Assembly (NCBI GenBank): GCA_973895155.1
Contig: OZ316893.1
Coordinates: forward strand, 1,116,860-1,180,859
Source: Marsupella aquatica
Taxonomy: Eukaryota > Plantae > Marchantiophyta
Length of the DNA: 64,000 bases
Direction: 5' to 3'
This document shows positions 3,945 to 55,343 of this stretch, piece by piece; the first letter of the stretch is position 1; the number at the start of each line of letters is the position of its first letter. Below the pieces are notes generated by a model. It did no database searches, was not told where the DNA came from, and worked only from the letters and a program-made list of their open reading frames with translations. The translations under genes were made by a program, and so were the position numbers.

Positions 3945-4262
3945 GACAAGCTTGACTTTCTCGTGTGTCTTTCGGTCCTATTTGATCGTCATCCGGACCA
4001 AAAGCAGAAGCTCGGTCCTATTTGATCGTCATCCGGACCAAGAGCAGAACTGCAGAAGCTCCATCGAGAGAGCTGCCAGAGAAATTAGTACGGCGGAAGA
4101 ACCGATTCACCCAGACATCTGCTACAGTCTTTTCATTGCCCTGGAAGACAAGCTCGACTTTCTCGCGGTGTGTCTTTCGGTCCTGTTTGATCGTCATCCG
4201 GACCAAAAGGAGAAGCTCCATCGAGAGAGCTACTAGAGAAATTGGTGCAGCGGAAGAACCGC
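3945..4262 (+). repeat. Imperfect tandem duplication in the ALDH2 5' leader
   Basis: gacaagct.gactttctcg...tctttcggtcct.tttgatcgtcatccggaccaa recurs at ~3946 and ~4147, with an extra partial copy at ~4012. Confidence 0.8.
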
Positions 4263-4385
4263 TTGACGTACTCGGAGACTGCACATTTCAGTGTGACTCC
4301 TGAATTCAGTTCTCCACATATCGCTTCAGCAGCTGAGTGCAATACGGTGGTTGAGAAGAAGAAGGTATTTGGAAGGAGCGTGGAG

Positions 4386-6056
4386 ATGGCGACCAGGAAG
4401 GTGGCGGGATCGTTGATTACTCGATTGGTTGCATCCGGCAAAGGGATAATTTCAGCACCTTCCGTCGGGGCTAGGACGATTACCACGACAACGACTGCAA
4501 GGACGAGCTCTGCATTGTGGAGGACTGTCTACGGAGCCCGTCAGTATGGTGCTGCAGCGGCGGAGGAAGATCTGGAGACGCCCATGAAGGCTCCCTTTCC
4601 TATTCAGTACACGAAGTTACTGATCAATGGTGAGTTCGTCGACGCTGCCTCTGGAAAGACGTTGGCGACTGTAGATCCGCGGACGGAAGAGGTGATTGCT
4701 CATGTGGCTGAGGGGGACAAGGAGGATGTGGATCGCGCAGTGAAGGCGGCCAGGACTGCTTTCGAAGAAGGCCCGTGGCCGCGAATGCCTCCGCACGAGC
4801 GTGCGTCAATCCTCCAGCGGTTCGCCGACCTGATCGAGAAGCACAACGACGAGCTCGCGGCGTTGGACTCGCTGGACAGCGGTAAGCCCTATGAGCAAGC
4901 TCGATTTGCAGAGATACCCGCCGTGGTGAGGGTTTTCCGATACTATGCCGGATGGGCCGATAAGATTCACGGAAGAACAATTCCTACGGAAGGAAACAAT
5001 TTCGCGTACACTCTGCACGAGCCTATCGGTGTTTGCGGGCAGATCATACCCTGGAATTTCCCGATGGTGATGTTCGCATGGAAGGTCGCACCTGCCCTCG
5101 CTGCCGGCAACACCATCGTCCTCAAGACTGCGGAGCAAACCCCTCTCTCGGCCATACTAGCCGGTAAGCTCGCCCTGGAAGCTGGCATCCCCCCCGGTGT
5201 CCTCAACATCATTTCAGGATACGGTCCAACGGCTGGTGCCGCGATCTCTGAACACATGGACATCGACAAGGTTGCGTTCACGGGTTCGACGGAGGTAGGG
5301 AAGAAGGTCTTGGCAGCCGCGGCGGGGAGCAATTTGAAGAAGGTGACTCTGGAGCTCGGTGGCAAGTCTCCGTTCATCGTCTGCTCGGATGCGGATGTGG
5401 ATCACGCGGCCGATTTATCTCACTTCGCTCTCTTCTTCAATCAGGGCCAATGCTGCTGTGCGGGGTCCCGAACTTTTGTCCACGAGAGTGTTTATGACGA
5501 GTTCATCGAGAAGGCAAAGGACCGGGCGGTGAAGAGAGTGGTGGGAGATCCGTTCCGAAGTGGAGTTCAGCAGGGCCCCCAAATTGACAAGGCGCAATTT
5601 GACAAGATTTTGGGATACATTAACAGTGGGGAGAGTCAGGGTGCAAAGCTCATCACGGGTGGGTCCCGCTTAGGAAAGAAAGGGTTCTACATCAAGCCCA
5701 CGGTCTTTGGCGACGTCGGCGATGACATGACAATTTTCAACGAGGAAATCTTCGGTCCCGTCCAGTCGGTCTCCAAGTTCAGCACCTTGGACGAAGCGGT
5801 GAAGCGGGCGAACAAGTCGAGTTATGGGCTGGCTTCAGCTGTTCTCACCAAGAGTTTGGATACTGCGAACACTGTCTCTCGCAATTTGAAAGCAGGAACA
5901 GTGTGGATTAATACGTACAATCTGTTCGATCCGAGCCTTCCTTTCGGAGGCTACAAGCAGAGTGGCATTGGTAGAGAGAAGGGTATCTACGGACTAGACA
6001 ATTATCTCCAAGTGAAGGCAGTTGTGACACCCATCAACAATCCAGCTTGGTTGTGA
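4386..6056 (+). CDS. ALDH2: Aldehyde dehydrogenase family 2 (mitochondrial-type, ALDH2B-like), intronless, 556 aa
   Basis: First in-frame ATG at 4386 (MATRKVAGS...). The N-terminus is Arg/Ser/Thr/Ala-rich like a mitochondrial presequence. Motifs: [25 protein letters not shown] (catalytic Glu), [12 protein letters not shown] (catalytic Cys), [20 protein letters not shown], and the plant C-terminus NPAWL. Confidence 0.95.
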
Positions 6057-14095: not shown

Positions 14096-15412
14096 TCTAT
14101 ATTCTATGTGATATCATGTCATCCTAAATACTAAGTTGGATAATGATAGTACTAAAGTTACTTAAAGTCAAGTGTGGTGAGTGTGTTTACCTTACTCCAC
14201 TCACGCTAGTAACTGCTTTTTTTTCTTTTCTTTTTCAGGTCACACTAACCATTTCATTTTGCTAACAATCTCTTGTATAACAGTGTACAAAAAATGGATC
14301 ACAACAATACAAAATTAAGGTGAGTGAAAAACCTTTGGCAATTTACCCAAGAAGGGGTTGAATTTTAGTTTGCGCTCTTGTAATCTGGATTTCTGTGCAC
14401 CCCTAGACCATATCTCAAATTCTAGACTACCTTGGTGTGCTCTAGGTGTCAGCTAGGATCTACCTACTACACCAGGGCCCCACCTCCTTGCTTCAGGGCG
14501 CCCATAAGAGAAGAAATAAAACGGCAAAAACCAAAAAGGAAAGAAAAAGAAATTAAAAGGCAAAACAAAAATAGAAAGCAAAAGAAAAAGGCAAAAGAGA
14601 AATACAAAGCAAAAGAAATTGGAAAAGAGAAACAAAACGCAGAAGAACACGGCAGAGCATAAAGGCATACCAAGACAAAAAAAATAAAAATGTAAAGCCT
14701 TCCTGTATCACAGACCAAGAGAATTTAAGTTTAATTCTTATAGCTTGATATAAACAAACTTAACTATTTTATAGTTTTGGGGATATGTTAGAAGAGTAGG
14801 TAAGCTACACTTCCTGTAAAGTGACATTTAACTTTAGCCGTTTAGGTTGAGTTTCTCATCTAGGATTGCCCATGGGTAACTTTGATTATATTAATTCTCT
14901 TTGTGTTATATGACTACTTGGGTTTGTGGGTTTTTATGTGTCCTCCTTCTCTAGTTGCCTTGTAATTGCAAAAATATTTTCATGATTCATAATCATCTAG
15001 TGATGGACCCCAAACTCCCACTGACAGCCAAAATGTGGTCCATAGGAGCAATGTGTCCAACATGGTGTTCCATCCTGGTTTCAGTTTTCAAACCCAAAAA
15101 AAGGGGAAAAAAACTAAAAAACTAGAAAAACAGTCATTCAAGTGCATCTTCGTCCAGGTTGAGTCAGCCGGACGTAAACTGGAATTTGCGTCAGGAAAAA
15201 TTTCGGGATATGTCCGGTGTGTTCCCGGATGTAATCGTGGTTTGCGTCCGGGAATACACCGGACGTATTCGAAACCCTTCTGCTTCGTTTATGAGTTCTG
15301 AATCTCTCTCATTTCGCGTTTATAAGTTCTCATTCGCAACGATAGATTTCTCATTTCCGCAGGAAAGTGAAGTTTTGTGGAATCGTTCTGAAAGGATTGT
15401 CGATCTCTGGCG

Positions 15413-15844
15413 ATGTCGTATAACAATGTAATTGGGGGGAAGCTGAATCTGAAGGGGAAGGCTCTGGACGTGAAGGGCGGAGGGGCAAAGAAGAAGAAAG
15501 CGAAGAATAAAGTGTCGCTGGAGCAAAAGTTGCTCCTGCTTCACAGCAATCACGACGAGGCCGAAGGGTTGGGGTCGGAATCGACGAAAGAAGGAAGTAG
15601 ATCGCTTCACGGGAGCGATGGGGAAGAAGAACAGGGCGAAGGCGGACACGACGGGCGGATTGCAACTTACGAAGATCACCGAACGCCTGCCGAAAAGGTC
15701 TACGACGAGCAGAGAACCAGGTTGGAGATGAAACGTCTTGCGAAAGTGGCCAGTAAATCGCATAGACAGAAGATTGAAGAGTTTAATCAGTATCTAGCCA
15801 ATCTCAGTGAGCATTATGACATTCCGAAGGTTGGACCGGGTTAA
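15413..15844 (+). CDS. FAM32A: FAM32A/DUF1754-family small nuclear protein, 143 aa
   Basis: N-terminal GGKLNLKG followed by a Lys run; C-terminal RTPAEK...KSHRQKIEEFNQYLANLSEHYDIPKVGPG is the conserved family tail. Confidence 0.9.
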   Translation: MSYNNVIGGKLNLKGKALDVKGGGAKKKKAKNKVSLEQKLLLLHSNHDEAEGLGSESTKEGSRSLHGSDGEEEQGEGGHDGRIATYEDHRTPAEKVYDEQRTRLEMKRLAKVASKSHRQKIEEFNQYLANLSEHYDIPKVGPG

Positions 15845-36190: not shown

Positions 36191-39189
36191 TCCTTTTCAG
36201 ACACACCTACCGATGATAGGCACAAGTCATCTCAATTTCAAAGGACCTAGAGGTTGAAGTTGTTTTATGGATATCAGTCCTTGAGTCTAGGTTGTGAGTG
36301 CAAGTATCCCTCAAGCTAGTATTTTCCCTTCATTCTTCCTTTAGCCAAATCCCATGTCTAATAAAATTGATTATTTAAATCCAAAAGTCATGAGTGCCCT
36401 TCAAAAATGCATGTTGAAAACAGACAATGAGAAAGGAAAAGAAGGATTTGATTTGATAGAGTTTAGACAAAAGAGAATGAAACATACTCCAATAACAAGA
36501 GTGTGCAGTGACGTCAACAGACTGCACTAGCAACGCTGGTAGCACGGGTGACAGCAAACCACAAGCATGCCTCTTGCTTCGAGATAGTGCAGAATGTCGT
36601 CAAGGAGATACTCAAAGCTCCGGGGAACATTCTTCCCGACTGCACTAGGGTAGGGATGGCAGCAAAGCACAAAGCTTTGCCTCCTAAATATTCTTTTGCC
36701 TCGAACGAGCTCGCCTTTCCTTTCGAGTCAGTGCAGAATGTCGTCAACGATACATACAAAAGATGAGTGTAACATGTCGGGTATCAATCTAAAGAATTCG
36801 AAACTATCGAAGATCTCCAATCCGTCCGGCCTGTATCCACTGCGTTTCTGGGACACTCATATTCCTAGTTTTGGGCCGCATCAAGCAGAGAACGTGACGC
36901 CTGTGGTGATCCAGAACAATAAGATCGCGAGCTATCAAAGCCAAACAGGAGCGATCCCAAGCGCTTCGGTCTCTGGACAAATTCGTACCTTCGTGAAGTA
37001 TGGTCGTGTTAGTATCAGCCTGAGTCGAAGCTCATCAAGAATTGTATTTAGAACCGTGTCCTGATGAACTGAGAGCAAAATGAAGCGAAGAGAGAAGAAG
37101 CGTTTCGGGTTTCCTCATCGAGGGGTTCGTTTCTACCTTGGAGAGCTTCTCACCGAAGAGTTCTACAGTAGAAGGAGAGTTTCGAAGCGCAGGTTGAGCG
37201 AAGGGGGAGCCACCAACAATTATCGAACTCACTGAAAAAACTTGAGGCGAAAATAAAGGAGCGTCGAAGAGCAGGTTGCTTTGCGCATGTCTTCCACGGT
37301 CGATCTCCCTGATGTCATATTGCCGACCCCACCATCTTTGGGGTTCTACTATCCCACTCCTACAGTAGAACTTCCGCCGCCAGTCATACGTCGGTGATTC
37401 GTCTGGGAGTCTAGATTGTCTTGTAAGACTCGGGTTGAGGCATGTCAACGGTGTGGCCTAGGAGCAAACGCAATTCAGGAAGAGCGGAGATTGTCTGCTG
37501 TTTATATTTTACTGTATGGAAGGTCTCGAGATGAGCTGGCTGGATTTGGGGTTTGGGATCGTACTTTCGTCTGTGAGCTTCTCTGTCGAGAGGGTTTGGT
37601 CGTGGGCTGCACGCCGCAGCAGGCCACAGCTGGGATCACTCTAAAGGCTTCAGATCCAGACTATCTCCCACAGCCTCTAATGTGTGACACAAGCCCAGAA
37701 AAAAGCAATGGGTGAAGCACGCTTGCAAACCAAGCGACCCTCAGTGACCCTCAGTGACCTCAGTCTTGCAACCAAGTGACTCCCAGCGACCATCAGTGAC
37801 CTCTCCCTACATGACCTCACATAGTCCTATCAAGCAAGTTTTCGGTCCACCCTGGTCCCTGGTCTCTCCTTTTGAGACGCCCCGTTGCATGCTGGTACAG
37901 TGAATTGCAAGAAATATGTCGAGCAAACAAATAGTCTTATCACGCAAGTTTTCATTTATAGCAAGTGGCATACCAGTCATGATTTGATATCATCAGTATC
38001 TTCTGGATCCTTATTCATCACGGGAATTCATCTGTTCTATGTCAATGCTCACTGTGCCTTATATTTCTTCCTTTTTTATTGTCCGGTTGAGACATTAGTC
38101 AACAAGCCTCATCTGGTGTACAAGTATGATTCATCGTTTTACAGAGGGCAGAGGGGTCCCAAATCAGTCGACTTCAACGCTGGTTGGAGCGTTTACAAGG
38201 ATGTGTTCATTTGATTCTCTGGACAAGGAGGAACGGAGTTGTCTTCGTCCCTGATCACGCGTGAAGTTCATCACGAAACAACTCTCGAGGCAAAGACTGG
38301 TTACAGTCCCATCACTGGAAGATGGCAGTCAATTTGGTACGTTCATGCTGCTGACGAGAGTAAGAGAGATCGATTCGTGAGGACCACCGCTCGGACGGGT
38401 TACGTCAAAGCGAGAATGGTCACCATAAAGGTGCTCGCGCAATGACCGTCCAAGGCAGTCCTTCAAGCGAATGCTCCCTCGTCTACTGACGCATTGATGA
38501 TACTGGTCATTATCGAACAATCATTCGAGCCACAGAGGGGCCGATTCCTGTCCCACGAGGAGCCGACAATCTTCAAGACTCAGTTTGTAGTTCGATCGGA
38601 GAGCTTCCAGAACCACCGTCCGCTCCTCGGGAACCCTGTAAGTTTGTACCCATCGGAGTCTTGTTTCAAAGCAATCCAAATAACCAATGTCACTCTCACG
38701 TGCAAGGAACAGAATAGCTTTGGGAGTGGGCATTATCTGCCACACGGCGTCCTGTGTAAAGTGCAACCATTCGTGGATTCCTTGGCGAGTAAGCCTCCCT
38801 GCACTTCAACGACCAGATAGACTTGCGGGGACATTAGGGGGTCTCAAATATACGCCCGTTTCGCTGTCCCGCGGGATAGGCCAAGGTCCCGTTAAGTGGC
38901 CCGCGGGAGTGTTATACGGACATGGCACTGTTTGTATATCCCATGTTTTTCCCGTCCCGTAACAGCTGGGCTGCGGGTGGGTGAAGTGGCGGGTCAGCCG
39001 AAGTGTGCAATTCTGAAACGGCCCGCCCGTGTTGCCATTCACACAGTGAGCTCCTAAGTTTGAATCTCAAAATCAAACATCGCGCCAAGAGTGTAGGAGG
39101 GCAAGTGTGCGAAGAGTGTAGAGGGCAAGTTACTCTCTTAAGAACAAAGATTTGAATTGGACATCGTGTGGCGAGCGGGACGCAAAAAC

Positions 39190-40806
39190 ATGGAGATAGA
39201 TCGGAGTCTGCCAGATGATTCGATTCATGTTCAAGATCTGTCATCTGCAATGCGTTCCAGGTTTGCTCCAGGAGGACAGGCTTTTGTCCCTCCGCGCGTG
39301 CTGACTGCATCTTCGCCCCAACAAGACTCAACCGCACAAGCGCATCATGCAAGTTCTGCAGCAGCACCTGCACTTCTAGGAATGGCAGGGCAAGGCAGTC
39401 GTCGAGGAGTGGGTGGTAATCAGGTAGTAGGGACAAAACTGACAAGGAGAGATTATGCTTTGATCGTTGACTATTTAGAGGTTCAAGATAACTACAATGC
39501 CATTTTTGGAGCTGGTCGAAAAACGAGGCCAGGTAACCGCTATCAATCCAAGAAGTCTGTATTCACTTCCATGGCTGCAGTGCTAGCAGATTATGGGTTT
39601 CCAAAGATGGATGGGGCTAATTTGGCCAAGAGATTTGGCCGGTATCAGGACATGTACAAAAAAGCATTGATGTTTAAGACTTCTTCGGGTGGAGGTCTCA
39701 CTGAGGAGGAGGTACAATGTGGGGTCACTATGGATCAGAAGCTCGACAAGATGTGCCCTTTGTTTGATAGGATGCATGCAATTTGTGGGGAACGTGCCAA
39801 CATCCAACCTCCAGGATTGGTGAGCCATGGTTTCGCTGGTTCTGGAATTACTCAGGCCCCTGACGAGGCTGAGGAAGCAGCTGATGAGAGCGAAAACGAA
39901 GTTCCTGATCCTGAAGAGGAGCCAACTTCGCCAACCTGGCTTATGGCAGGTAAGCTTGCTCTGAATATATCTCTTTGTAGTCGGTGCACTCGGTAGTATT
40001 TCTCAATGAAGTCTACTCCATATCCCTTTGTAGCCAACTCTCAATAAAGTTCATTCCACTGTCTGGCTTATTTTGTGATTGCAGATTCTCCACCCGGTGT
40101 TGAGGATGAGTCTGTAAACCCTGGTGGTGAATCACAACCCCCTACGCCAAATGCAACGGAAGCGGAAGCTGCACCAAGTGGGACAGAAGAGGTTCGACCA
40201 ACAAATATGGGCGGCATGCCCCAACAGGTGAATGATGGCCCCAGTCGGACCCAACCCACTGTTTTTTCTGGCTCTAGGCCCGCCCACACTGGAATACCGA
40301 GTAGTCCAAATGTTCAGACTACTCAGGCTCCAACGAGAAGTCAGTCCACATCGAGGGCGAATGAGAAATCAGCGCCACCTAAAAAGAAGCCTGGCTTTGA
40401 AGGATCTGCAACTTCTAAAGGGAGCTTAGCGGCCATGTATGCAGAGCAGAAAAGAGAGAAGGCAGGCTTTAGAAAGGAGTTGATTGGGACAAAAACTTTG
40501 TGGAAAAAAGATGAATTAGACGACAGACGTAAAGCACGTGTTGATGCTGCAAAAAATGACAAACTGGAAAGGGTGCACAAATTTAGGTTAGAACAATTTA
40601 GTGCCACACAAGCTGAGAAGCGGCTTCGAATGGACCAGACTCATCAAATGCTGATGGCCCAAATGACTATGCGGGGACAGTTGATGTCAGATTTATTCAA
40701 GAGCAACAAATCGGAGGCTGAAATTAGCAGGTTGATGAAAATGGTAGAAACTACCTATAGCATGCCCACAAATTCAGGGCCACCTCTTTCTGACGAAAAT
40801 GAGTGA
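39190..40806 (+). CDS. Harbinger accessory Myb/SANT-like DNA-binding protein, 2 exons, ~493 aa
   Basis: Exons 39190-39949 and 40085-40806 (GTAAG...TTGCAG) join in frame. Helical domain ending GGGLTEEE...KLDKMCPLFDRMHAICGERAN, an acidic/Pro linker and a basic coiled-coil C-terminus. Convergent with the transposase, as is usual for Harbinger second ORFs. Confidence 0.8.
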
Positions 40807-41389
40807 CATTTTTAGGTAGTTGGATATTGATAGTACCAAGTTCATTTCAGTTGTCACTTAAAGTTTGGTCTGTGAGCACAGGTTTTATAGAGTGCGAACA
40901 TTGCCCTTCACTACTCTCAGATTCTTGAGATAATGGCCCTACTTTGGCCCGATTGAATACAAATGGAGATTTTGTAAATTTTGACTCTTGTATTAATTCG
41001 TATCTTTTGAACTTGAATGTGCATATGTGTAATTTGAGACAAAAATGAGTGACAATTCAAATAGTTTTCATTGGGCATTCACACAACTATTACAAGTCTA
41101 GGCTTGGGGGCGAATTCACAATCCTGTGTGTGTTCTCGTACCTTATCAAATTCGGACAATGTTAGGCCTGGAATTTCAGTAAGTCCAGAAACATGGTTCT
41201 TGTTAACAATTGAAGTTCAATAATAGACATTTATTCATAAAATTGTGACATGCACAATTACCAAGCGCCAAATTTCACATTTGAGTGTTCGAATGTATAT
41301 ACTACATAACCCTAAACTGCTCCTACAGTTTGTGGATATGGTTCCTCCAAATGTGCTAAATGAAAGCTAATACTGGCAATGCCAGTATA

Positions 41390-42896
41390 TCATGATCCAA
41401 ACTCCCATAGCAATCCTCCTGGCTGTCGGTTGAAAGCTAGAGCACGGGCCATAACTCCCGTTTGAAGTGTTCGCCCAGCAGCCCGAGCTTGCCTATTCCG
41501 TGCCATGTCTCCGCCCCTCATTTCTGCTGCTCTGTCTTCCTCCTCAGGGGGGCCTGGAGGCCAGTCCGTCATCTCTTCCTCTGTCCACTCGTCATTTCGT
41601 GCCAACACATAGTTATGCAACAAAGCACAAGCACGAATCCATCGACATATCCACACATTGTCCTTTTTTTCATTAAGTTGGGTTCTGATTTCTTTCAATG
41701 AGAACCAGCGTGACTTTAGCACTCCTATACAATGCTCATTCACATATCTTGTCTTGGCAATGCAAGTATTAAAATCCTCTTTATCCTTGTGCCCATATGT
41801 GTTCTTGTAGGCAGCGACCATGTGGGGTGCATTCACATACCCCGAATCTCCAAGAAGATACTGCCCTGCATCAAAGGCTGAGACTCCATGTATTTTGTCC
41901 CAAAGTATGCACCTCTTCAGGCACGTGAGGTCAGAACACGATCCAGGATTTCCTGGGGCATATACACATAATATCATCAGCCAAGGGAACATACAATACA
42001 AAGTGGCAAAAACGTCAATTGAACATAGGCAGGAACATAATTGGTTGAGTAGATGCCTCACCAGCTTGAAGGAATGTGATCTTCCTCCTATGATCGCACA
42101 CAACCTGTGCATTGATGGAGTATCGGGATTTTCTATCAAAGTAGCACTCGCCATGGTTCTTGGGTCTTTGTGTCAATGGAAGTATGGTTCCATCAATCAA
42201 TCCCACGCAGCCATGGAAGCCACGTTGAGAAAATTCATTAGAAATGAGTAGACGCTCTGTCCTATCTGGCCATTTCAAATATTCACCAAGAGCTGACTCC
42301 AGGGCTGTCACACATCTAGTACTGTAATTGACACAGGATCCCACACTTACACCCCACAGTAGCAAGGTTCGTTTCAGCCACACACCATTCCCTGTATGCC
42401 CTAACCTGTCCAAGCAAGTGGCTAGTTGGAGTGAAACAGGGGCCTGTTCATGGTGAGAATTGTTGTGAAACACTGGATGCATTTCAATTAAGTCTAGAAG
42501 AGCAAAAAAAGCTTCTTTATCCATCCTACAAATCTGTCTGAAGTCGCTCATAGGCAGGATGGTTCTGAAAAAAGTAGTTGCAAATTCTTTTGCCCGAGCA
42601 ATTTTAGAGCGTTTCTGATAGTACCTCTCACTAGATAACAGAGTGTACATGTCAAACCACTCACTTGGTCGACAATTGACATTGCATGGGTCTCTATCAA
42701 TTCCAGCCTCTGAATCAGAGGAAGAGTCCATGTCACAGTCAGTATCTATGGACATGAACCCACTGCTGTCTGAGGAAGAGCAATTAGAAGACCCACTCAT
42801 GCCATCATCATCACTAGAGCTTTCCAGCATAATACTCAAATAAAGATGCTCACGAACCCATTTAAGGCATTGCTGGCGATTTGAGACCTTTGGCAT
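41390..42896 (-). CDS. Harbinger-type DDE transposase (HARBI1/DDE_Tnp_4-like), 2 exons, ~465 aa
   Basis: Exons 42896-42062 and 41952-41390 (intron GTGAG...CCCAG) join as QAG|NPGSCSD. Motifs FRQICRMDKEAF, QLATCLDRLG, GLIDGT, YSINAQVVCD, PGSCSD, LLGDSGY, NEHCIGVLKSRW, CALLHNY; no stops. Confidence 0.93.
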
Positions 42897-43100
42897 ATTT
42901 CTCAAGGAGGCTATCACCCTGGCACTGCAAAGGAAACCACACACATTCAATTCACTCAAAATAAATAAAAGTGCCCGAGGGAATCCATATTAACATTTGC
43001 ATGACAAATCCTGTGATTGTCCAATCAACTTTGCAGCTCTGTGATAGCCCATTGACATACTACTACAGCTGTAAAATGTGGGGTTTTCCACTAAGACCCT

Positions 43101-43108
43101 AAACCCTA
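43101..43108. promoter_or_regulatory. Telo-box (AAACCCTA) upstream of the transposase ORF
   Basis: accctaaaccctac overlaps the stop codon of the OB-fold ORF, just upstream of a putative transposase 5'-UTR intron (43060-42925). Confidence 0.4.
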
Positions 43109-43765
43109 CTCCTCGTCACTTAATGCTGCTGTTCGTATAGCCTGACAAAGTTCTTCAAGCAATTTTTTGGCACTGCTTGATTTGGTAGGGGTTTTTAAAA
43201 TAGATTTTGCTGGTGTGTGGTAAGAAGAACTACTACTACTTCCACATTCAGGAGTGTTGAAGGATCGTATTGATATTGGTACTTGGACTGCAGGGGCATC
43301 CAACAATGTCAACTGCTGGACTGAAATCCCCTTCTTTCCAGTTCTGAGGAAAACCTTCGCTCTTGGGGTGCTCTCCATCAAGGCAGTCAAGAACTGAACC
43401 TGCTGCCCCTCATTGCAATTACTGAAATCTTCCGCATTGCAACCAAGGAGAGCATCAGCAACATCCCACAAATTGACATGGAGAGGGGCTGTGCCTCCAT
43501 GAATGGCATCACAAATTATGACCTTAAACCGAAATCTCAGTAAAGGAGCATCTACATGTGTGTTGTAACATGGACCGAATTCAAGGGACTTCGAACAGAT
43601 GCGACCACTCGGCAGTATGTGAGAGCATGCCTGGTACACAAACTTCCGGGGGTAAGGATTGGGAGCAACGTAGTTACATATCCACACTAGTGCTGGAGCA
43701 AACGACATGGTGTCGCCTCTGCGATAACTATCCTCGACGTCAGATAGGCAGGTCCACTCTCCCAT
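43106..43765 (-). CDS. RPA1 C-terminal-like zinc-binding OB-fold protein encoded inside the transposon, 219 aa
   Basis: YQAC...CSKSL...CYNTH...RFRFKVIICD...VNLWDVADALLGCNAEDF follows the RPA70 DBD-C pattern (YQAC..C.KKV..C..C..YR..l.v.i.D...v..F..AE.iLG.nA). Open ORF with an ATG; a probable 5'-UTR intron lies at 43772-43847. Confidence 0.75.
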   Translation of the reverse strand: MGEWTCLSDVEDSYRRGDTMSFAPALVWICNYVAPNPYPRKFVYQACSHILPSGRICSKSLEFGPCYNTHVDAPLLRFRFKVIICDAIHGGTAPLHVNLWDVADALLGCNAEDFSNCNEGQQVQFLTALMESTPRAKVFLRTGKKGISVQQLTLLDAPAVQVPISIRSFNTPECGSSSSSSYHTPAKSILKTPTKSSSAKKLLEELCQAIRTAALSDEE

Positions 43766-44974
43766 CCTCCCCTGTGAGAACGAACAACAAGATAAGCTAA
43801 GATTGTGGGGACAAACAAAAATTGCTAGAGTGAGAAGCGTAGCTCACCAAACCTCACCACACGATAAGCTTCTACCGTCGAGCTCCAAGTTCCAGGGGCA
43901 CGCGATGGCTCCAGCCTCAAATGATGGCTCTTCTCAGGCTTGGCGATCGCTAGCGCTTCAAAGTCTTCAGACCCGAATCGATCCCTCAATGCGCAAAAGC
44001 TCCAAAATGGCAGCTATGGCGTTCGTTCGATAGCAAGCAAGTGGTCGAGCTTACAGGCATTTGCGAGCAAGTGTCGAGAAAATGCTGCTTGCGAGCGAAA
44101 ATGGTATTAAAAAATTTGGGTTGCGGATGGCCTGTATGGATGTTAACGGCCATCGGGAAACGGTAAAGTCCCGCGGCACGAGTGTGCGGGCTAGCCTGGG
44201 GGAGTGCCGCACATTTTTAAGTCGCGTCCCTCCGAACCTAACGCGGACGGCCGTCACTGTGGCCGCGGCCTATATTTGAGACCCCCTATTAGACTTAGTA
44301 CAGAATGTTTCTTCAAGGCAAACGTTCCCCATAGCTTTTGAGACCTGAAAAACTATTGGGCAATAATAGGCTCAGTGACAATAAGATTTGTTCGAGGCAA
44401 CATCTCCATGGCTTGAAGACCAGACAGACTTGACAAACAACAGCCTCGTGACCAAAAATTGCAAAAGGCAACATTCTCCATGGCGGCAACTCAGAATCCG
44501 CGGGAGGTAGCACTGCTGCTCCTACTTGACACGATCTCCAGCGACTTTGATGTCGAACGCAAGAAAACTGTGAATGTGAGGTTTCGTTCGTCTACTTGCT
44601 CCGCAAGTGTGTTTTTGGTACAATAATAGGACAATCTAACACAGAATGGTAGACCTCCTTCACATCCTGTGTCTGATTGGATCCAGCATGAACCAGATTT
44701 CGTGGGCAGTCTGTCATCCTACGACGGGAGGATGACTCACTCACCGCGACACACGAAGACATTTCTTAAGCAGCATCGCACTGATTACTTGGCGTCGTAC
44801 GATATATGCTTCGGCCAAGTTACATTCCCCTCCGGCTTCTGTACTCTTCCTTGATACTGCCAAGCGGACGTCTTCTACACAGTCCAATATGTTTCCAATT
44901 TCCAACATGATTTTGACATTCCGGCCGAAATCTGTCACACCAATGATGGGCTACAACGTGTTACCTGTGTAGAG

Positions 44975-46085
44975 GCTGCACGATATCCATTGCACTGCAC
45001 TCTAAACTTCAATGCTCCGTAACGTAAGGCTCCACGATAGCTGATTTTTTGAAACCGATTCTCCGTAAGGCTCTGCAATGTCGGCGTCACTTTCAACCAG
45101 AATGATTTGACAGGAAGTCTACCACTCTAAACGTCAATGCTCCGTAAATCTCCACGATAGCCATTTCATTCAACTCTTGAAATGGATTCTCCGTAGGCTT
45201 GGCATATCTGCCATCGCTTTCAACATAATGACTAACAAGAATTTTCACCACTGACTGAGCGTCATTGCTTCGTAAGGCTCCACGATAGCCATTCCTTGTC
45301 CTCTACAAATGTACTCTCCGTGCTTGACAAGAACTTCAATTACTATCATCGGGCATTTTGAGAATAGTCGTGGTGTGCGAAGCCAACGGGCAACGCCGCC
45401 CATTTCCGAGATTAGTGGCCATCTGCAATGTCATTTTCAACATAATGACTGACAAGAGTTTTCACCATTCAACGTCAATGCTTCATAAGGCTCCACGACA
45501 GCCATTCCTTGCACTCGAGAAAAGGACTCTCCGTGACTTGACAGTAAGTTCAATTTCTATCATCTGGAAATCTGGAATGTCTAGAATTGTGGCTCTAGAG
45601 CACAGTATAGCTGTACAGTCGTGGTGAGCGAAGCCAATGCCGCCCATTTCCAAGATTAGTGGCGATCTGCAATGTCATTTGCAACATAATGACTGAAAAC
45701 AGTTTTCACCACTGAACGTCAAGGCTCCACGATAGCCATTCCTTGCACTCTCCGTCATTTGACAATAAGCTCAATTTCTATCATCTGCAATTGTGGCTCT
45801 AGAGCACAGAATGTTCGTGGTGTGCGAAACCCAATGCCGCCCATTTCCGAGATTAGTGGAGATTTGCAATGTCATTTTCAACATAATGACTGACAAGAGT
45901 TTTCACCACTGAACGTCAATGCTTCAAAAGGCTCCACGATAGCCATCGAGAAAAGGACTCTTAGCAATTGACAATAATGTCAGTTTCTATCATCTAGCGA
46001 TTCTGGAATTGTGGCCCTCGAGCACAGCGTATAGTCGTGGATGCGAAGCCAACGCCCATTTCCGAGATAGTGCAGATCTGCAATG
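44975..46085. repeat. Degenerate tandem array, ~130-220-bp units, about 7 copies
   Basis: Recurrent ggctccacgatagccatt, tttcaacataatgactgacaagagttttcacca and cgcccatttccgagattagtgg. Confidence 0.85.
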
Positions 46086-52955: not shown

Positions 52956-53606
52956 AGACAAAATAACTTGTGTGTCAGTTCAAACCGGGCACACATGAAT
53001 CATGTGAGATTTAATTGAACTCTGTAGTGAGCACCAGGGTGTCCTTCAGGCTGTGAAGCGAGGAGATCCACCTATGTGACACCACTGTTGTGTCTTTGTC
53101 GGTTCTTTTCGTGAGGGTTGTGATGTGTACCCCATGATTGAAAATACGACCTCTCTTCATGATTTTGTTTTCTCTCGTTTGCAACTCTCTCTTTCATGTC
53201 CCGACATCTGCCTTCAAATTGCAGGCGAGGTACTGGCACAGCAGGTACAGTACGATTTTGGAAAAGGCAAGTGCTGATTTAATAAAAAGTAGATCGAAAG
53301 CAGATCGGCATCATTCATACGCGAAGTGCATTGACGCGAAAAAGTTTGTTGAGACGACTACCGTAGCTCTCTAGTAGACGACTGTGGACTGTGACAAGTT
53401 CTGCTCGTGTCCTCACGATTCGAACGATTTCTCAGGGGGTGGGTTTAGTGAGCAGCAGCAGCTCCTCGCTACAAGTAGATTAGAAGCTTCGTGCCCCATT
53501 GCGCAGCATCAGACTTGATCGGGTAAGAGTCTTGAGGGATCGATTAGTTGGAAGCAGCTCCCCTCACTGCATATGGTGTCGTAGAGCTTCAGCATCGACT
53601 GGCACA

Positions 53607-55343
53607 ATGCAGCAGCGAGCAGCTACTCCAGTGACAGGAAGAGGAATGATGGTTAATCGGATCTGCAATGTCGTCTGCTGTGCTGTGGTTTTTATCTCGA
53701 TAACGTCGGTTGTCGTCGAAGCACTACCCATTCTGGGCCCGGACCTGAATCGTTGCCATACCGTGATTCCTCCCAAGAGAACTGCTGCGGAATCAGTCGA
53801 CTGCTGCCTGATTGACAATGGGGCCCCCATCAAGGACTTCAAGTTTAACTTGGATCTGCCTATGCGTGTGCGCAAACCTGCTCATAGGATGGACGATGAA
53901 TCCATCGAGAAGTATGAGCGAGCTGTTGCGCTCATGAAGGCTCTGCCGCCAGAAGATCCTCGCTCCTACGAAGCGCAGTGGAAGCTCCATTGTGCCTACT
54001 GCGCAGAAGCGTACGACCAGTTCAATACCACCGAAATACTTGATGTGCATCACGGCTGGCTCGTGCTGCCATTCCACCGCTACTACGTGTACTTCCACGA
54101 GCGCATTCTTGCAAAACTCATCGGTGATGACACCCTCGCCATCCCTTACTGGGCGTGGGACATGCAGTATGACGACCCACCAGGCAACATCATACCGCCG
54201 CCCTTCAACAACAAGAATTCGAGCCTCTACGATGCAGACCGATCCGCAGTCCACCAGCCGCCTGCTAGGGCCGACTTGGAATTCTTCCACCACCCCACGG
54301 GCAACAAGGAACCTGAAGTGCTGTTGCAGGATAACTTATTCAATTTGTGGAGGACGATGATCAGCGAAGTGAAAACCCCTGATGGATTCTTCGGAGCAAA
54401 ATTTTCTAAGGGTGACTCGGTTCAGTTGAGAGAAGGGCCGTTCGAGGTTGGGCCGCATGCTGCTGTCCATGGGTGGACCGGGTCCGAAGACACTGTGTTC
54501 GGAGAGGATATGTCGCCCGCTTACTCAGCAGCAAGGGATGAAACATTCTTTGCCCACCACTCTCAAATCGACAGACTCTGGCTCATGTGGCTGAAGTGGG
54601 GAGGGAGAGACCATGATCACGAGGACTATCTCAATGCTGAGTTCCTCTTTTATGATGAGAATGGGGACCTAGTGCGTGTTAACGTTCGAGATTCTCTGAA
54701 TTGGGACAACTTCCGGGTCTCATACGAAGAAGTGGCACCTGACTGGCTGTCTTACAAACCAAAATCGATTCGAGATTTATATCCAGAGCATTGCCAAGCT
54801 GGTATTCTGCAACGACTGTGGCGTCAAGTGGTAAGCACAGAGACATACAGGAACATCGCCATGGCGCTCGGGAGCTTCTATCAGCCACAGTGGAACCTGG
54901 CCAAAGCTTCCGTGGGAGGAGACAGGAGATCGGCGACCGCTCTAGTGTCTCGGTCCGAGGTGATCAAGGGCAGCATCGATGGATCGTCAGTTTATGATGA
55001 GGTGTTGATTGTGACCGGAACTGTAGAGAAGCCCTTCGACGTGAGCGTGCTCCTCAACATGTTCTTAGAGCTTCCGGAAGCTGACCAGAACACTCCTCAC
55101 CATGTTGTGGAGTACCTCGGTGGCGTGAGAGTAGAAGCAGAAGGGCTGGCTGATGGAATGGACAGGACTGTTAGTAAGATATTCATCAGGCCTATAGGCA
55201 TCGGAGACAGGATCGGAATTCTGGATATCAAGCATCGAAAGTCTTTGACGGTTACATTTGTTCCCGCTTGGGATTCGGAGCACGACGCTGAAGTTTCGAT
55301 TAAAATCACGGACCTGAAAGTGGAGTTGAAGCTGGTGAGGTGA
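53607..55343 (+). CDS. PPO: Polyphenol oxidase (type-3 copper tyrosinase family), intronless, with N-terminal signal peptide
   Basis: CuA HCAYC...VHHGWLVLPFHRYY; CuB EVGPHAAVH...RDETFFAHHSQIDRLW; DWL motif; C-terminal shielding domain (EYLGG). First ATG at 53607; alternative at 53646. Confidence 0.93.
   Translation: MQQRAATPVTGRGMMVNRICNVVCCAVVFISITSVVVEALPILGPDLNRCHTVIPPKRTAAESVDCCLIDNGAPIKDFKFNLDLPMRVRKPAHRMDDESIEKYERAVALMKALPPEDPRSYEAQWKLHCAYCAEAYDQFNTTEILDVHHGWLVLPFHRYYVYFHERILAKLIGDDTLAIPYWAWDMQYDDPPGNIIPPPFNNKNSSLYDADRSAVHQPPARADLEFFHHPTGNKEPEVLLQDNLFNLWRTMISEVKTPDGFFGAKFSKGDSVQLREGPFEVGPHAAVHGWTGSEDTVFGEDMSPAYSAARDETFFAHHSQIDRLWLMWLKWGGRDHDHEDYLNAEFLFYDENGDLVRVNVRDSLNWDNFRVSYEEVAPDWLSYKPKSIRDLYPEHCQAGILQRLWRQVVSTETYRNIAMALGSFYQPQWNLAKASVGGDRRSATALVSRSEVIKGSIDGSSVYDEVLIVTGTVEKPFDVSVLLNMFLELPEADQNTPHHVVEYLGGVRVEAEGLADGMDRTVSKIFIRPIGIGDRIGILDIKHRKSLTVTFVPAWDSEHDAEVSIKITDLKVELKLVR

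Follow-up and report, generated by a model that had tools for sequence, protein, structure and literature searches.

Within the PHIS group of transposons, canonical PIF/Harbinger elements are defined by duplication of a TWA target site and Pangu elements by duplication of ANT (Han et al. 2015, PMC4482050). The parts of that report available to us describe Pangu as two-gene elements with a mean length of about 3.5 kb, terminal inverted repeats (TIRs) of 11–40 bp starting with AG or GG and a second open reading frame (ORF) mostly without known motifs, from 15 genomes including those of rust fungi, Phytophthora, algae and animals, no land plant being named there. Pangu equals Harbinger2 of Repbase (Kojima 2025, PMC12730594), and the accessible portion of the same source describes three-gene Harbinger-type elements, namely HarbingerS of Phytophthora, which is related to Harbinger2/Pangu and encodes a SET methyltransferase, and PHISTA of rusts, which encodes a TET/JBP dioxygenase. 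RPA-like genes have been described from Helitrons, as PHRPA of the Mothra-type plant Helitrons, reported from monocots and dicots only in the text at hand (PMC4683698), and as the RPA genes of HLE1 and HLE2 (PMC11417382). Here we analysed a 64-kb window from the liverwort Marsupella aquatica (contig OZ316893.1, positions 1,116,860 to 1,180,859; window positions are used below), which contains an intact 5,452-bp transposon (38836..44287) with a DDE transposase gene, a second gene (ORF2) and a third one, ORF3. The analysis indicates that ORF3 is very probably a selected accessory gene, and its 219-residue product is predicted to adopt the zinc/OB fold of RPA70 DBD-C.

An earlier note on this DNA had stated that PIF/Harbinger elements normally encode nothing beyond a transposase and a Myb-like protein, which the described SET and TET/JBP genes qualify (PMC12730594, as far as accessible), and that RPA-like cargo is known from plant Helitrons, which PHRPA and HLE1/HLE2 bear out (PMC4683698 and PMC11417382, in the parts available). 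Like HarbingerS and PHISTA, the window element is a PHIS element that stably carries an extra gene. Where those two encode an enzyme that modifies chromatin, the window element is predicted to encode an OB fold without enzymatic function, of the replication/repair type. Like the Helitron genes, ORF3 is a transposon-encoded diverged RPA70 homologue, but Helitrons are rolling-circle elements with a single-stranded DNA (ssDNA) intermediate, whereas the window element is of the TIR/DDE type, lacks RepHel and encodes a predicted single DBD-C with a CCCH site; the OB tree contains no PHRPA sequences. Extra genes in Harbinger-type elements and RPA genes in Helitrons are already known, and their pairing in a TIR element was not found in the literature: open full-text articles, with Repbase, subscription journals and bioRxiv supplements, which may contain such families, outside this scope, yielded no TIR element, PHIS or other, with an RPA-like gene.

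Retention and probable selection of ORF3

A version covering ORF3 and about 95% alike was present in runs X3–X5, and X6 contained versions 90–95% alike. A 1,355-bp contig of X5 joins the transposase start to ORF3 codons 34–101 in the same order at about 80% identity, and similar transposase–ORF3 joints occur in X2, X3 and X4. ORF3, which the earlier note had proposed to look for in related copies, was therefore kept beside the transposase at about 95, 90 and 80% DNA identity. Further away, transposase cluster P0107/P0122 (50–51% identical to the window transposase) and OB cluster P0101/P0002 (42–44% identical to ORF3) each include proteins from contigs 2,983 and 5,965 bp long.

Variant sites within ORF3 were silent in 11 of 18 cases, with 22–29% expected (p 1e-4 to 1e-3), the OB domain contributing 10 of 14 and the tail 1 of 4, and a rough omega for the OB domain came to 0.11–0.16. 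In the 80% family, a 30-letter loose end read by hand covered nine codons with four silent changes and one replacement. Among 12 of the 46 indels, the one within ORF3 was 3 nt long, and seven in the right non-coding end measured 1, 1, 6, 1, 1, 2 and 4 nt.

The distant relatives give a different picture. Scanning metagenome contigs with the transposase recovered 183 relatives, of which the best 80 (30–41% identity) were kept, and none of these 80 loci carries an ORF3-like gene. At least 1.5 kb of upstream sequence was available for 28 of the 80, and four are complete two-gene elements of 2.8–3.4 kb. Because ORF3 is missing from these loci, complete elements included, it is dispensable for such transposons. 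Other points also weigh on the other side. Among the accession numbers compared, in Calypogeia none of 7 OB accessions adjoins any of 7 transposase accessions, the nearest being 145 apart, and in Riccia none of 3 OB tags adjoins the 2 transposase tags, which leaves most of the family without a shown Pangu link. That P0107/P0122 and P0101/P0002 probably share contigs is deduced from equal contig sizes rather than read from the DNA. The silent-site count uses 18 ORF3 rows among 40 of 250, pooled over lineages, and is not a formal ratio of replacement to silent rates (dN/dS), so that the dN/dS below 1 that the earlier note had asked about is matched in direction by the OB-domain changes rather than formally estimated. 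Finally, one X6 piece has 4 gap letters within ORF3, a possible frameshift in that copy.

Taken together, retention in relatives, the silent excess and the absence from distant loci argue that ORF3 is a lineage-specific selected accessory; judged from sequence, it is neither a fresh capture nor a third part that the group as a whole needs. Of the three-component system suggested previously, the retention of ORF3 in related elements is supported; as a general rule the system fails since the 80 distant loci lack the gene. A missing OB match, an ORF broken or absent in relatives, or a neutrally evolving piece of a host or Helitron gene had been listed as grounds for rejection; none of these was found outright.

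Predicted fold and zinc site of ORF3

The ORF3 product is divided into the following parts.

43106..43765, minus strand: ORF3, 219 aa, stand-alone RPA70 DBD-C-like protein (sequence, family profile, model)
43298..43765, minus strand: residues 1–156, OB fold with predicted zinc site C47/C57/C66/H70 and conserved aromatic W100 (model, family)
43172..43297, minus strand: residues 157–198, S/T/P-rich linker, modelled at low confidence and bearing the full CDK motifs TPAK and TPTK (model, family)
43118..43171, minus strand: residues 199–216, predicted amphipathic C-terminal helix, family-wide (model, family)

The position, length, C47-x9-C57-x8-C66-x3-H70 spacing, YQAC motif and two CDK motifs are all as previously noted. 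Searched alone, ORF3 reached only E 0.082 and 13.1 bits against Rep_fac-A_C (PF08646; gathering score 28.5), below the cut-off, and phmmer against the PDB gave no match. The ORF3 model (pLDDT 88.9) was more informative: each of the 10 Foldseek rows with E<=0.001 is either RPA70 DBD-C or Teb1 OB-C, and VIA superposition gave Z scores of 13.6, 13.4 and 12.9 with a root-mean-square deviation (rmsd) of 2.5–3.1 over 135–140 residues, the partners of the model being human, Ustilago and yeast RPA70C and Teb1 OB-C. Consistently, a profile of 63 family members had yeast Rfa1 DBD-C as its sole PDB match (E 0.003). Thus the Rep_fac-A_C likeness expected of ORF3 shows in the model and not in the lone Pfam score, and the predicted RPA70 DBD-C-like zinc/OB fold, as surmised before, is called because of the family profile and the model.

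With RPA70 DBD-C and Tetrahymena Teb1 OB-C (PDB 1l1o, 4gop, 6i52 and 3u50; Z 10.7–13.6), the model shares the N-terminal helix, the OB barrel, the zinc-ribbon insertion, here superposable on that of RPA70C, and an F/W residue before the ...LLG helix. It differs in being 14–21% identical, in standing alone, and in placing its end helix beyond the CDK-motif linker. The zinc site of RPA70 DBD-C consists of four Cys, whereas that of ORF3 is predicted to be Cys3His. ORF3 has one OB domain and is therefore not a true RPA70, which has tandem OB domains (N, A, B and C).

Two features of these comparisons count against a straightforward equation with RPA70. Teb1 OB-C scores as well as RPA70C, with POT1/CTC1 domains next at Z 9–10, so that the partner of ORF3 could instead be a telomere complex. 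In addition, the end helix lies about 40 residues from the OB domain in the model, unlike in RPA70, and a Foldseek alignment spanning it has an rmsd of 12.7; its equivalence to the RPA70 trimerisation helix is therefore a guess.

Atlas matches obtained with ORF3 alone were OB-fold clusters at 0.85–0.92, of low recognition value and taken as a lead only. The two best atlas clusters are unnamed fungal proteins of 135–166 aa with 241 and 100 members, and stand-alone RPA70C-like proteins may occur in fungi too.

A family of stand-alone OB proteins

A two-sequence ORF3 profile run against 1.84 billion representatives returned 100 matches, from which the repeat proteins P0037 and P0083 were removed. 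The median length of the remaining 98 members is 209 aa; a single one exceeds 400 aa, and 85 of the 88 that start with the domain have at most 40 extra N-terminal residues. Full-length RPA70 was absent from the members scanned (16 long or RPA-like ones and 63 members), and 3 of 63 match PF08646 at E<=0.01, the best of them, P0039, passing the cut-off with 30.4 bits. Among 24 representatives looked up, the 8 with an organism name are all from liverworts; all named close ORF3 homologs, and most transposase homologs, come from Calypogeia fissa and Riccia sorocarpa. Word-based protein searches yielded just 1 and 3 relatives. Scanning metagenomes with a pair of ORF3 sequences gave 106 pattern matches, none of them a relative, and no ORF3 relative was found in phages. 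Several longer members (P0075, P0050, P0056, P0069, P0076 and P0047; 357–675 aa) have unassigned C-terminal extensions, and one of the longer members is labelled C2H2-type by UniRef.

The ligand columns of the zinc site are conserved (C in 61/62, C in 57/63, C in 58/63 and H in 56/60), the third Cys of the window ORF3 sitting one column off the family alignment, as are the F/W aromatic at position 100 (60/62) and residues F80 and D86. In 58 tails, the linkers contain 151 S/T-P motifs against 71±7 in shuffles and 35 full CDK motifs against 8.6±2.8, so that the S/T-P-rich tail with CDK motifs pointed out in the window protein is a trait enriched across the family. Against a general CDK switch, a full motif is present in 26 of the 58 tails only, and related sequences are not independent. 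An amphipathic end helix was predicted in 41 of 52 members (shuffled mean 14, maximum 24). In a 66-row OB tree, ORF3 and the transposase-linked P0002 fall in an 18-row group (93/95, not starred), and genomic context is known within this group only, the remaining 48 rows being without context. Judging by these sequences, the family is one of stand-alone CCCH-zinc OB proteins, comprising 98 clusters and having no name.

Element boundaries and mobility

The ends of the element consist of the following features.

38833..38835, no strand: left target-site duplication ATT (sequence; single-ATT empty site in X3 and X5)
38836..38852, plus strand: left TIR, 17 bp perfect, starts with AG (inverted-repeat comparison)
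38853..39189, plus strand: left subterminal region, CpG-rich (observed/expected ratio, o/e, 0.97), likely ORF2 promoter (sequence)
44271..44287, minus strand: right TIR (inverted-repeat comparison)
44288..44290, no strand: right target-site duplication ATT (sequence; single-ATT empty site)

The TIRs are complementary at 17 of 17 bp, extending to 20 of 21 bp with one mismatch, and both ends are flanked by ATT. The window contains 14 perfect 17-mer inverted pairs 0.5–15 kb apart, of which the element pair alone has identical 3-bp flanks; 100 simulated windows contained 16 such pairs in total, with the duplication not yet required. An empty site was found in a contig of runs X3 and X5 that links the left flank to 44288 via a single ATT. 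As the X3 contig differs from the right flank of the window at 47 of 511 letters, it represents a homologous site from a diverged genome or a paralogue. In run X6, three contigs exit the right TIR into different flanking sequence. The single-ATT empty site and these other flanks together establish that the boundaries and the 3-bp duplication, which the earlier note had read from the window, are real and that the family has moved. Shifting the ends by one base yields TTA versus TAT and no matching duplication, and alternative ends with a TTA or AT duplication were ruled out by non-matching flanks and the empty site.

Over window positions 37800–45300, runs X3 and X4 contain the exact element plus the version about 95% alike, X3 having the empty site as well, while X5 contains the diverged version and the empty site only; the co-existing exact and diverged versions are read as two genomes in one run (a hybrid, polyploid or mixture). 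Contigs with both TIRs (38851 to 44272) enclosing unlike sequence in runs X2, X3 and X5 probably represent members of the family that are non-autonomous or diverged. Several copies are hinted at by contig depths (66–85 for inner exact pieces versus 38–46 for the flanks in X3, and 18.9 versus about 4 in X5), but these are not copy numbers and were not used as evidence. Immediately to the right of the element lies a diverged tandem repeat (44998–46085) whose unit measures about 200–245 bp. Elsewhere, the window contains plant genes: intron-free ones for an aldehyde dehydrogenase (4191–6056) and a polyphenol oxidase (53484–55343), FAM32A (15392–15844) and exons of an oxysterol-binding protein gene near 31–33 kb.

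Assignment to the Pangu branch

The earlier note had labelled the element Harbinger-type. It shares with canonical PIF/Harbinger a PHIS-type DDE transposase, a convergent second gene and a 3-bp duplication; the canonical group, however, has TWA and a recognisable Myb/SANT ORF (PMC4482050, from the part available), whereas the window element has ATT and no Myb match. The traits of Pangu are found instead: ATT, an ANT triplet, lies on both sides and once in the empty site, the TIRs of 17–21 bp start with AGGGGG, and a DDE transposase with no domain but DDE_Tnp_4 above the Pfam cut-off is accompanied by a motif-less ORF2. Compared with the two ORFs and about 3.5 kb of Pangu as described in the accessible text (PMC4482050), the window element is longer, at 5.45 kb, and has a third, RPA70C-like gene. 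Among the best 80 of the 183 transposase relatives, the four complete 2.8–3.4-kb two-gene elements have AGGGG ends with an AAT or ATT duplication; one or other of these triplets was recorded as the duplication for L009, L010, L015 and L019; the L006 inverted repeat and the 1.8-kb pair of L055 were not counted as complete elements. In a 45-row transposase tree, the window protein groups with proteins from Calypogeia and Riccia and with unnamed ones (8 rows, 100/98), and this clade adjoins a Phytophthora capsici protein (89/85) that is the nearest non-liverwort transposase; with no named Pangu reference among its rows, the tree indicates kinship to unnamed ANT-duplication elements and the Phytophthora protein only. 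No transposase relatives were found in prokaryote genomes. The ANT duplication, AG-starting TIRs and motif-less ORF2 thus fit the Pangu (Harbinger2) branch of PHIS rather than canonical PIF/Harbinger.

Transposase and ORF2

The two remaining genes have the following structures.

41390..42896, minus strand: DDE transposase (DDE_Tnp_4), 466 aa spliced, exons 42896–42062 and 41952–41390 (Pfam, homologs)
41953..42061, minus strand: predicted transposase intron, 109 nt, GT-AG (sequence, homologs)
39190..40806, plus strand: ORF2, 494 aa spliced, exons 39190–39949 and 40085–40806 (sequence, ORF2 of relatives, model)
39950..40084, plus strand: predicted ORF2 intron, 135 nt, GT-AG (sequence only)

Each half of the transposase matches DDE_Tnp_4, the sole domain above the Pfam cut-off; removing the intron gives a product with the triad D235/D314/E351, and annotated homologs continue into the exon-2 motif at the predicted intron position. 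The three genes, noted before as uninterrupted, are free of stops and frameshifts, but the transposase gene and ORF2 each have one predicted intron.

The proposed Myb/SANT-like nature of ORF2 was not confirmed. ORF2 has no Pfam family above cut-off and no PDB sequence match, and its helical model (pLDDT 74) gave no Foldseek match below E 0.001, the best weak rows being the non-significant ones to the DNA-binding domain of fission-yeast Sap1 (E 1.7–1.8). In 8 of the 80 distant loci, the convergent second gene is a homologue of ORF2 (phmmer E<=0.05), and ORF2, with its modelled helical N-terminal domain, is likely the DNA-binding partner. In the two-gene Pangu-type relatives L015 (2597–3682), L045, L009 and L073, ORF2 starts with a finger rich in Cys and His and of weak PHD likeness (PHD_NSD at E 0.0075, under the cut-off), which is absent from the window ORF2.

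Predicted expression anatomy

Upstream of ORF3 and of the transposase gene, the following features were identified.

43772..43857, minus strand: predicted ORF3 5'-untranslated-region intron, donor 43857 or 43847, acceptor 43773–43772 (acceptor rank 1/194)
42897..43105, minus strand: 209-nt spacer, CpG-poor (o/e 0.12), with a predicted acceptor at 42926–42925 before the transposase ATG (rank 5/194)
43858..44270, minus strand: right subterminal region, CpG-rich (o/e 1.05 over 43766–44287), likely promoter/leader of ORF3 and perhaps of the transposase as well

By crude scores, the best of 194 minus-strand AG sites lies 6 nt ahead of the ORF3 start and the fifth-best 28 nt ahead of the transposase start, three intra-exon AG sites also ranking within the top five, and donors 43857 and 43847 score like the donor of the transposase intron. 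The match between diverged contigs and the window extends to 43781, just beyond the first acceptor, and the gene bodies are CpG-depleted (o/e 0.40–0.52). Acceptors before both genes, together with the CpG-rich ends and the CpG-poor spacer, suggest that one right-end promoter could feed ORF3 and the transposase via alternative acceptors.

Models for ORF3 function

In cut-and-paste transposition the transposase cuts and pastes, helped by ORF2. DBD-C of RPA70, together with a C-terminal helix, joins RPA32 and RPA14 in the trimerisation core, with which the title of PDB 1l1o is consistent, and the strong ssDNA-binding domains A and B of RPA70 lie upstream. ORF3 is predicted to retain DBD-C and an end helix and has neither A nor B nor the N-terminal recruiting domain; keeping the trimer-core part while dropping the ssDNA-binding domains favours a mimic of RPA70C. 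In the model that we tentatively prefer, at slightly less than even confidence, ORF3 would mimic RPA70 under cell-cycle regulation, engaging host RPA where excision has left a break and so favouring copy gain. ORF3 and the transposase would be co-expressed from the right-end promoter by alternative splice acceptors, the transposase and ORF2 would excise and reinsert the element, the ORF3 end helix would dock onto host RPA32/RPA14 or a related OB partner with CDK phosphorylation of the linker timing the docking to S/G2, and the altered RPA complex would bias repair of the donor break toward copying of the element from the sister chromatid. The chances that ORF3 acts via host RPA or a related OB complex are about evenly balanced, and action specifically through donor-site repair is doubtful. 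Rather unlikely as a whole is the broadest version, in which liverwort Pangu would be a three-protein system whose CDK-switched, co-spliced RPA70C mimic replaces RPA70 and steers repair or silencing at the element.

The same binding step could have a different pay-off if ORF3 sequesters RPA32/RPA14 or disturbs the replisome, with the result that replication-coupled silencing is relaxed at the element. In Arabidopsis, silencing is destabilised by mutations in RPA2A (PMC7687843, as far as available), third genes elsewhere in Harbinger-type elements are chromatin enzymes of the SET and TET/JBP types (PMC12730594, accessible portion), and the CpG-depleted gene bodies are a sign of past methylation; a general RPA poison, however, would hurt the host and de-repress every element, and rpa2a also increases CHG methylation (PMC7687843, same part). 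We regard such a decoy as unlikely. A direct role in the transpososome has a similarly low probability: here ORF3 would be a monomeric ssDNA- or end-binding domain, tethered by its C-terminal helix to the transposase or ORF2, that shields 3-nt overhangs or resected ends with host RPA uninvolved. The conserved aromatic residue and zinc site would suit this role, as would the position of ORF3 between the right TIR and the transposase in several families, with a possible shared transcript, but DBD-C alone binds ssDNA weakly and complete two-gene relatives with the same ends do without ORF3.

Two further explanations were considered. The OB gene may be a general accessory or hitch-hiker that moves among liverwort transposon kinds (Helitron, CACTA or others) or includes host genes, with Pangu merely one carrier and selection perhaps reflecting a benefit unrelated to Pangu chemistry. 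The depth of the 66-row tree, in which context is known for the window's own subclade only, and the lack of accession adjacency in Calypogeia and Riccia are compatible with this, as are the passive passage of TET/JBP genes between transposon lineages (PMC12730594, available text) and the commonness of RPA-like genes in Helitrons (PMC11417382 and PMC4683698, in the parts seen); by contrast, the same arrangement recurs in Pangu relatives from 95% DNA identity down to a likely 50% protein identity. This explanation is possible at rather low odds, and it is compatible with the RPA70-mimic model, so that both can hold. If a fragment of host RPA70 or of a Helitron RPA had been captured recently and were evolving neutrally, the fold likeness to RPA70C would be accounted for, but no full-length RPA70 is among the 100 profile matches, identity to RPA70C is 14–21% with a different zinc site, silent changes are in excess, and the start, linker and end helix are ORF3's own and common to the family. 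Neutral capture is therefore very improbable and largely refuted.

Implications

The fit of the window element would extend Pangu-type elements to land plants relative to their 2015 description, and about a hundred OB-fold proteins, hitherto hypothetical liverwort proteins, gain family status. Cut-and-paste elements depend entirely on host replication and break repair for any gain in copies, and little is known of the ways in which they bias either. A selected stand-alone RPA70C-like accessory of 219 aa would offer a small and concrete handle on copy gain, donor repair and silencing and, if the broadest version of the RPA70-mimic model is true, would represent a transposon rewiring host RPA.

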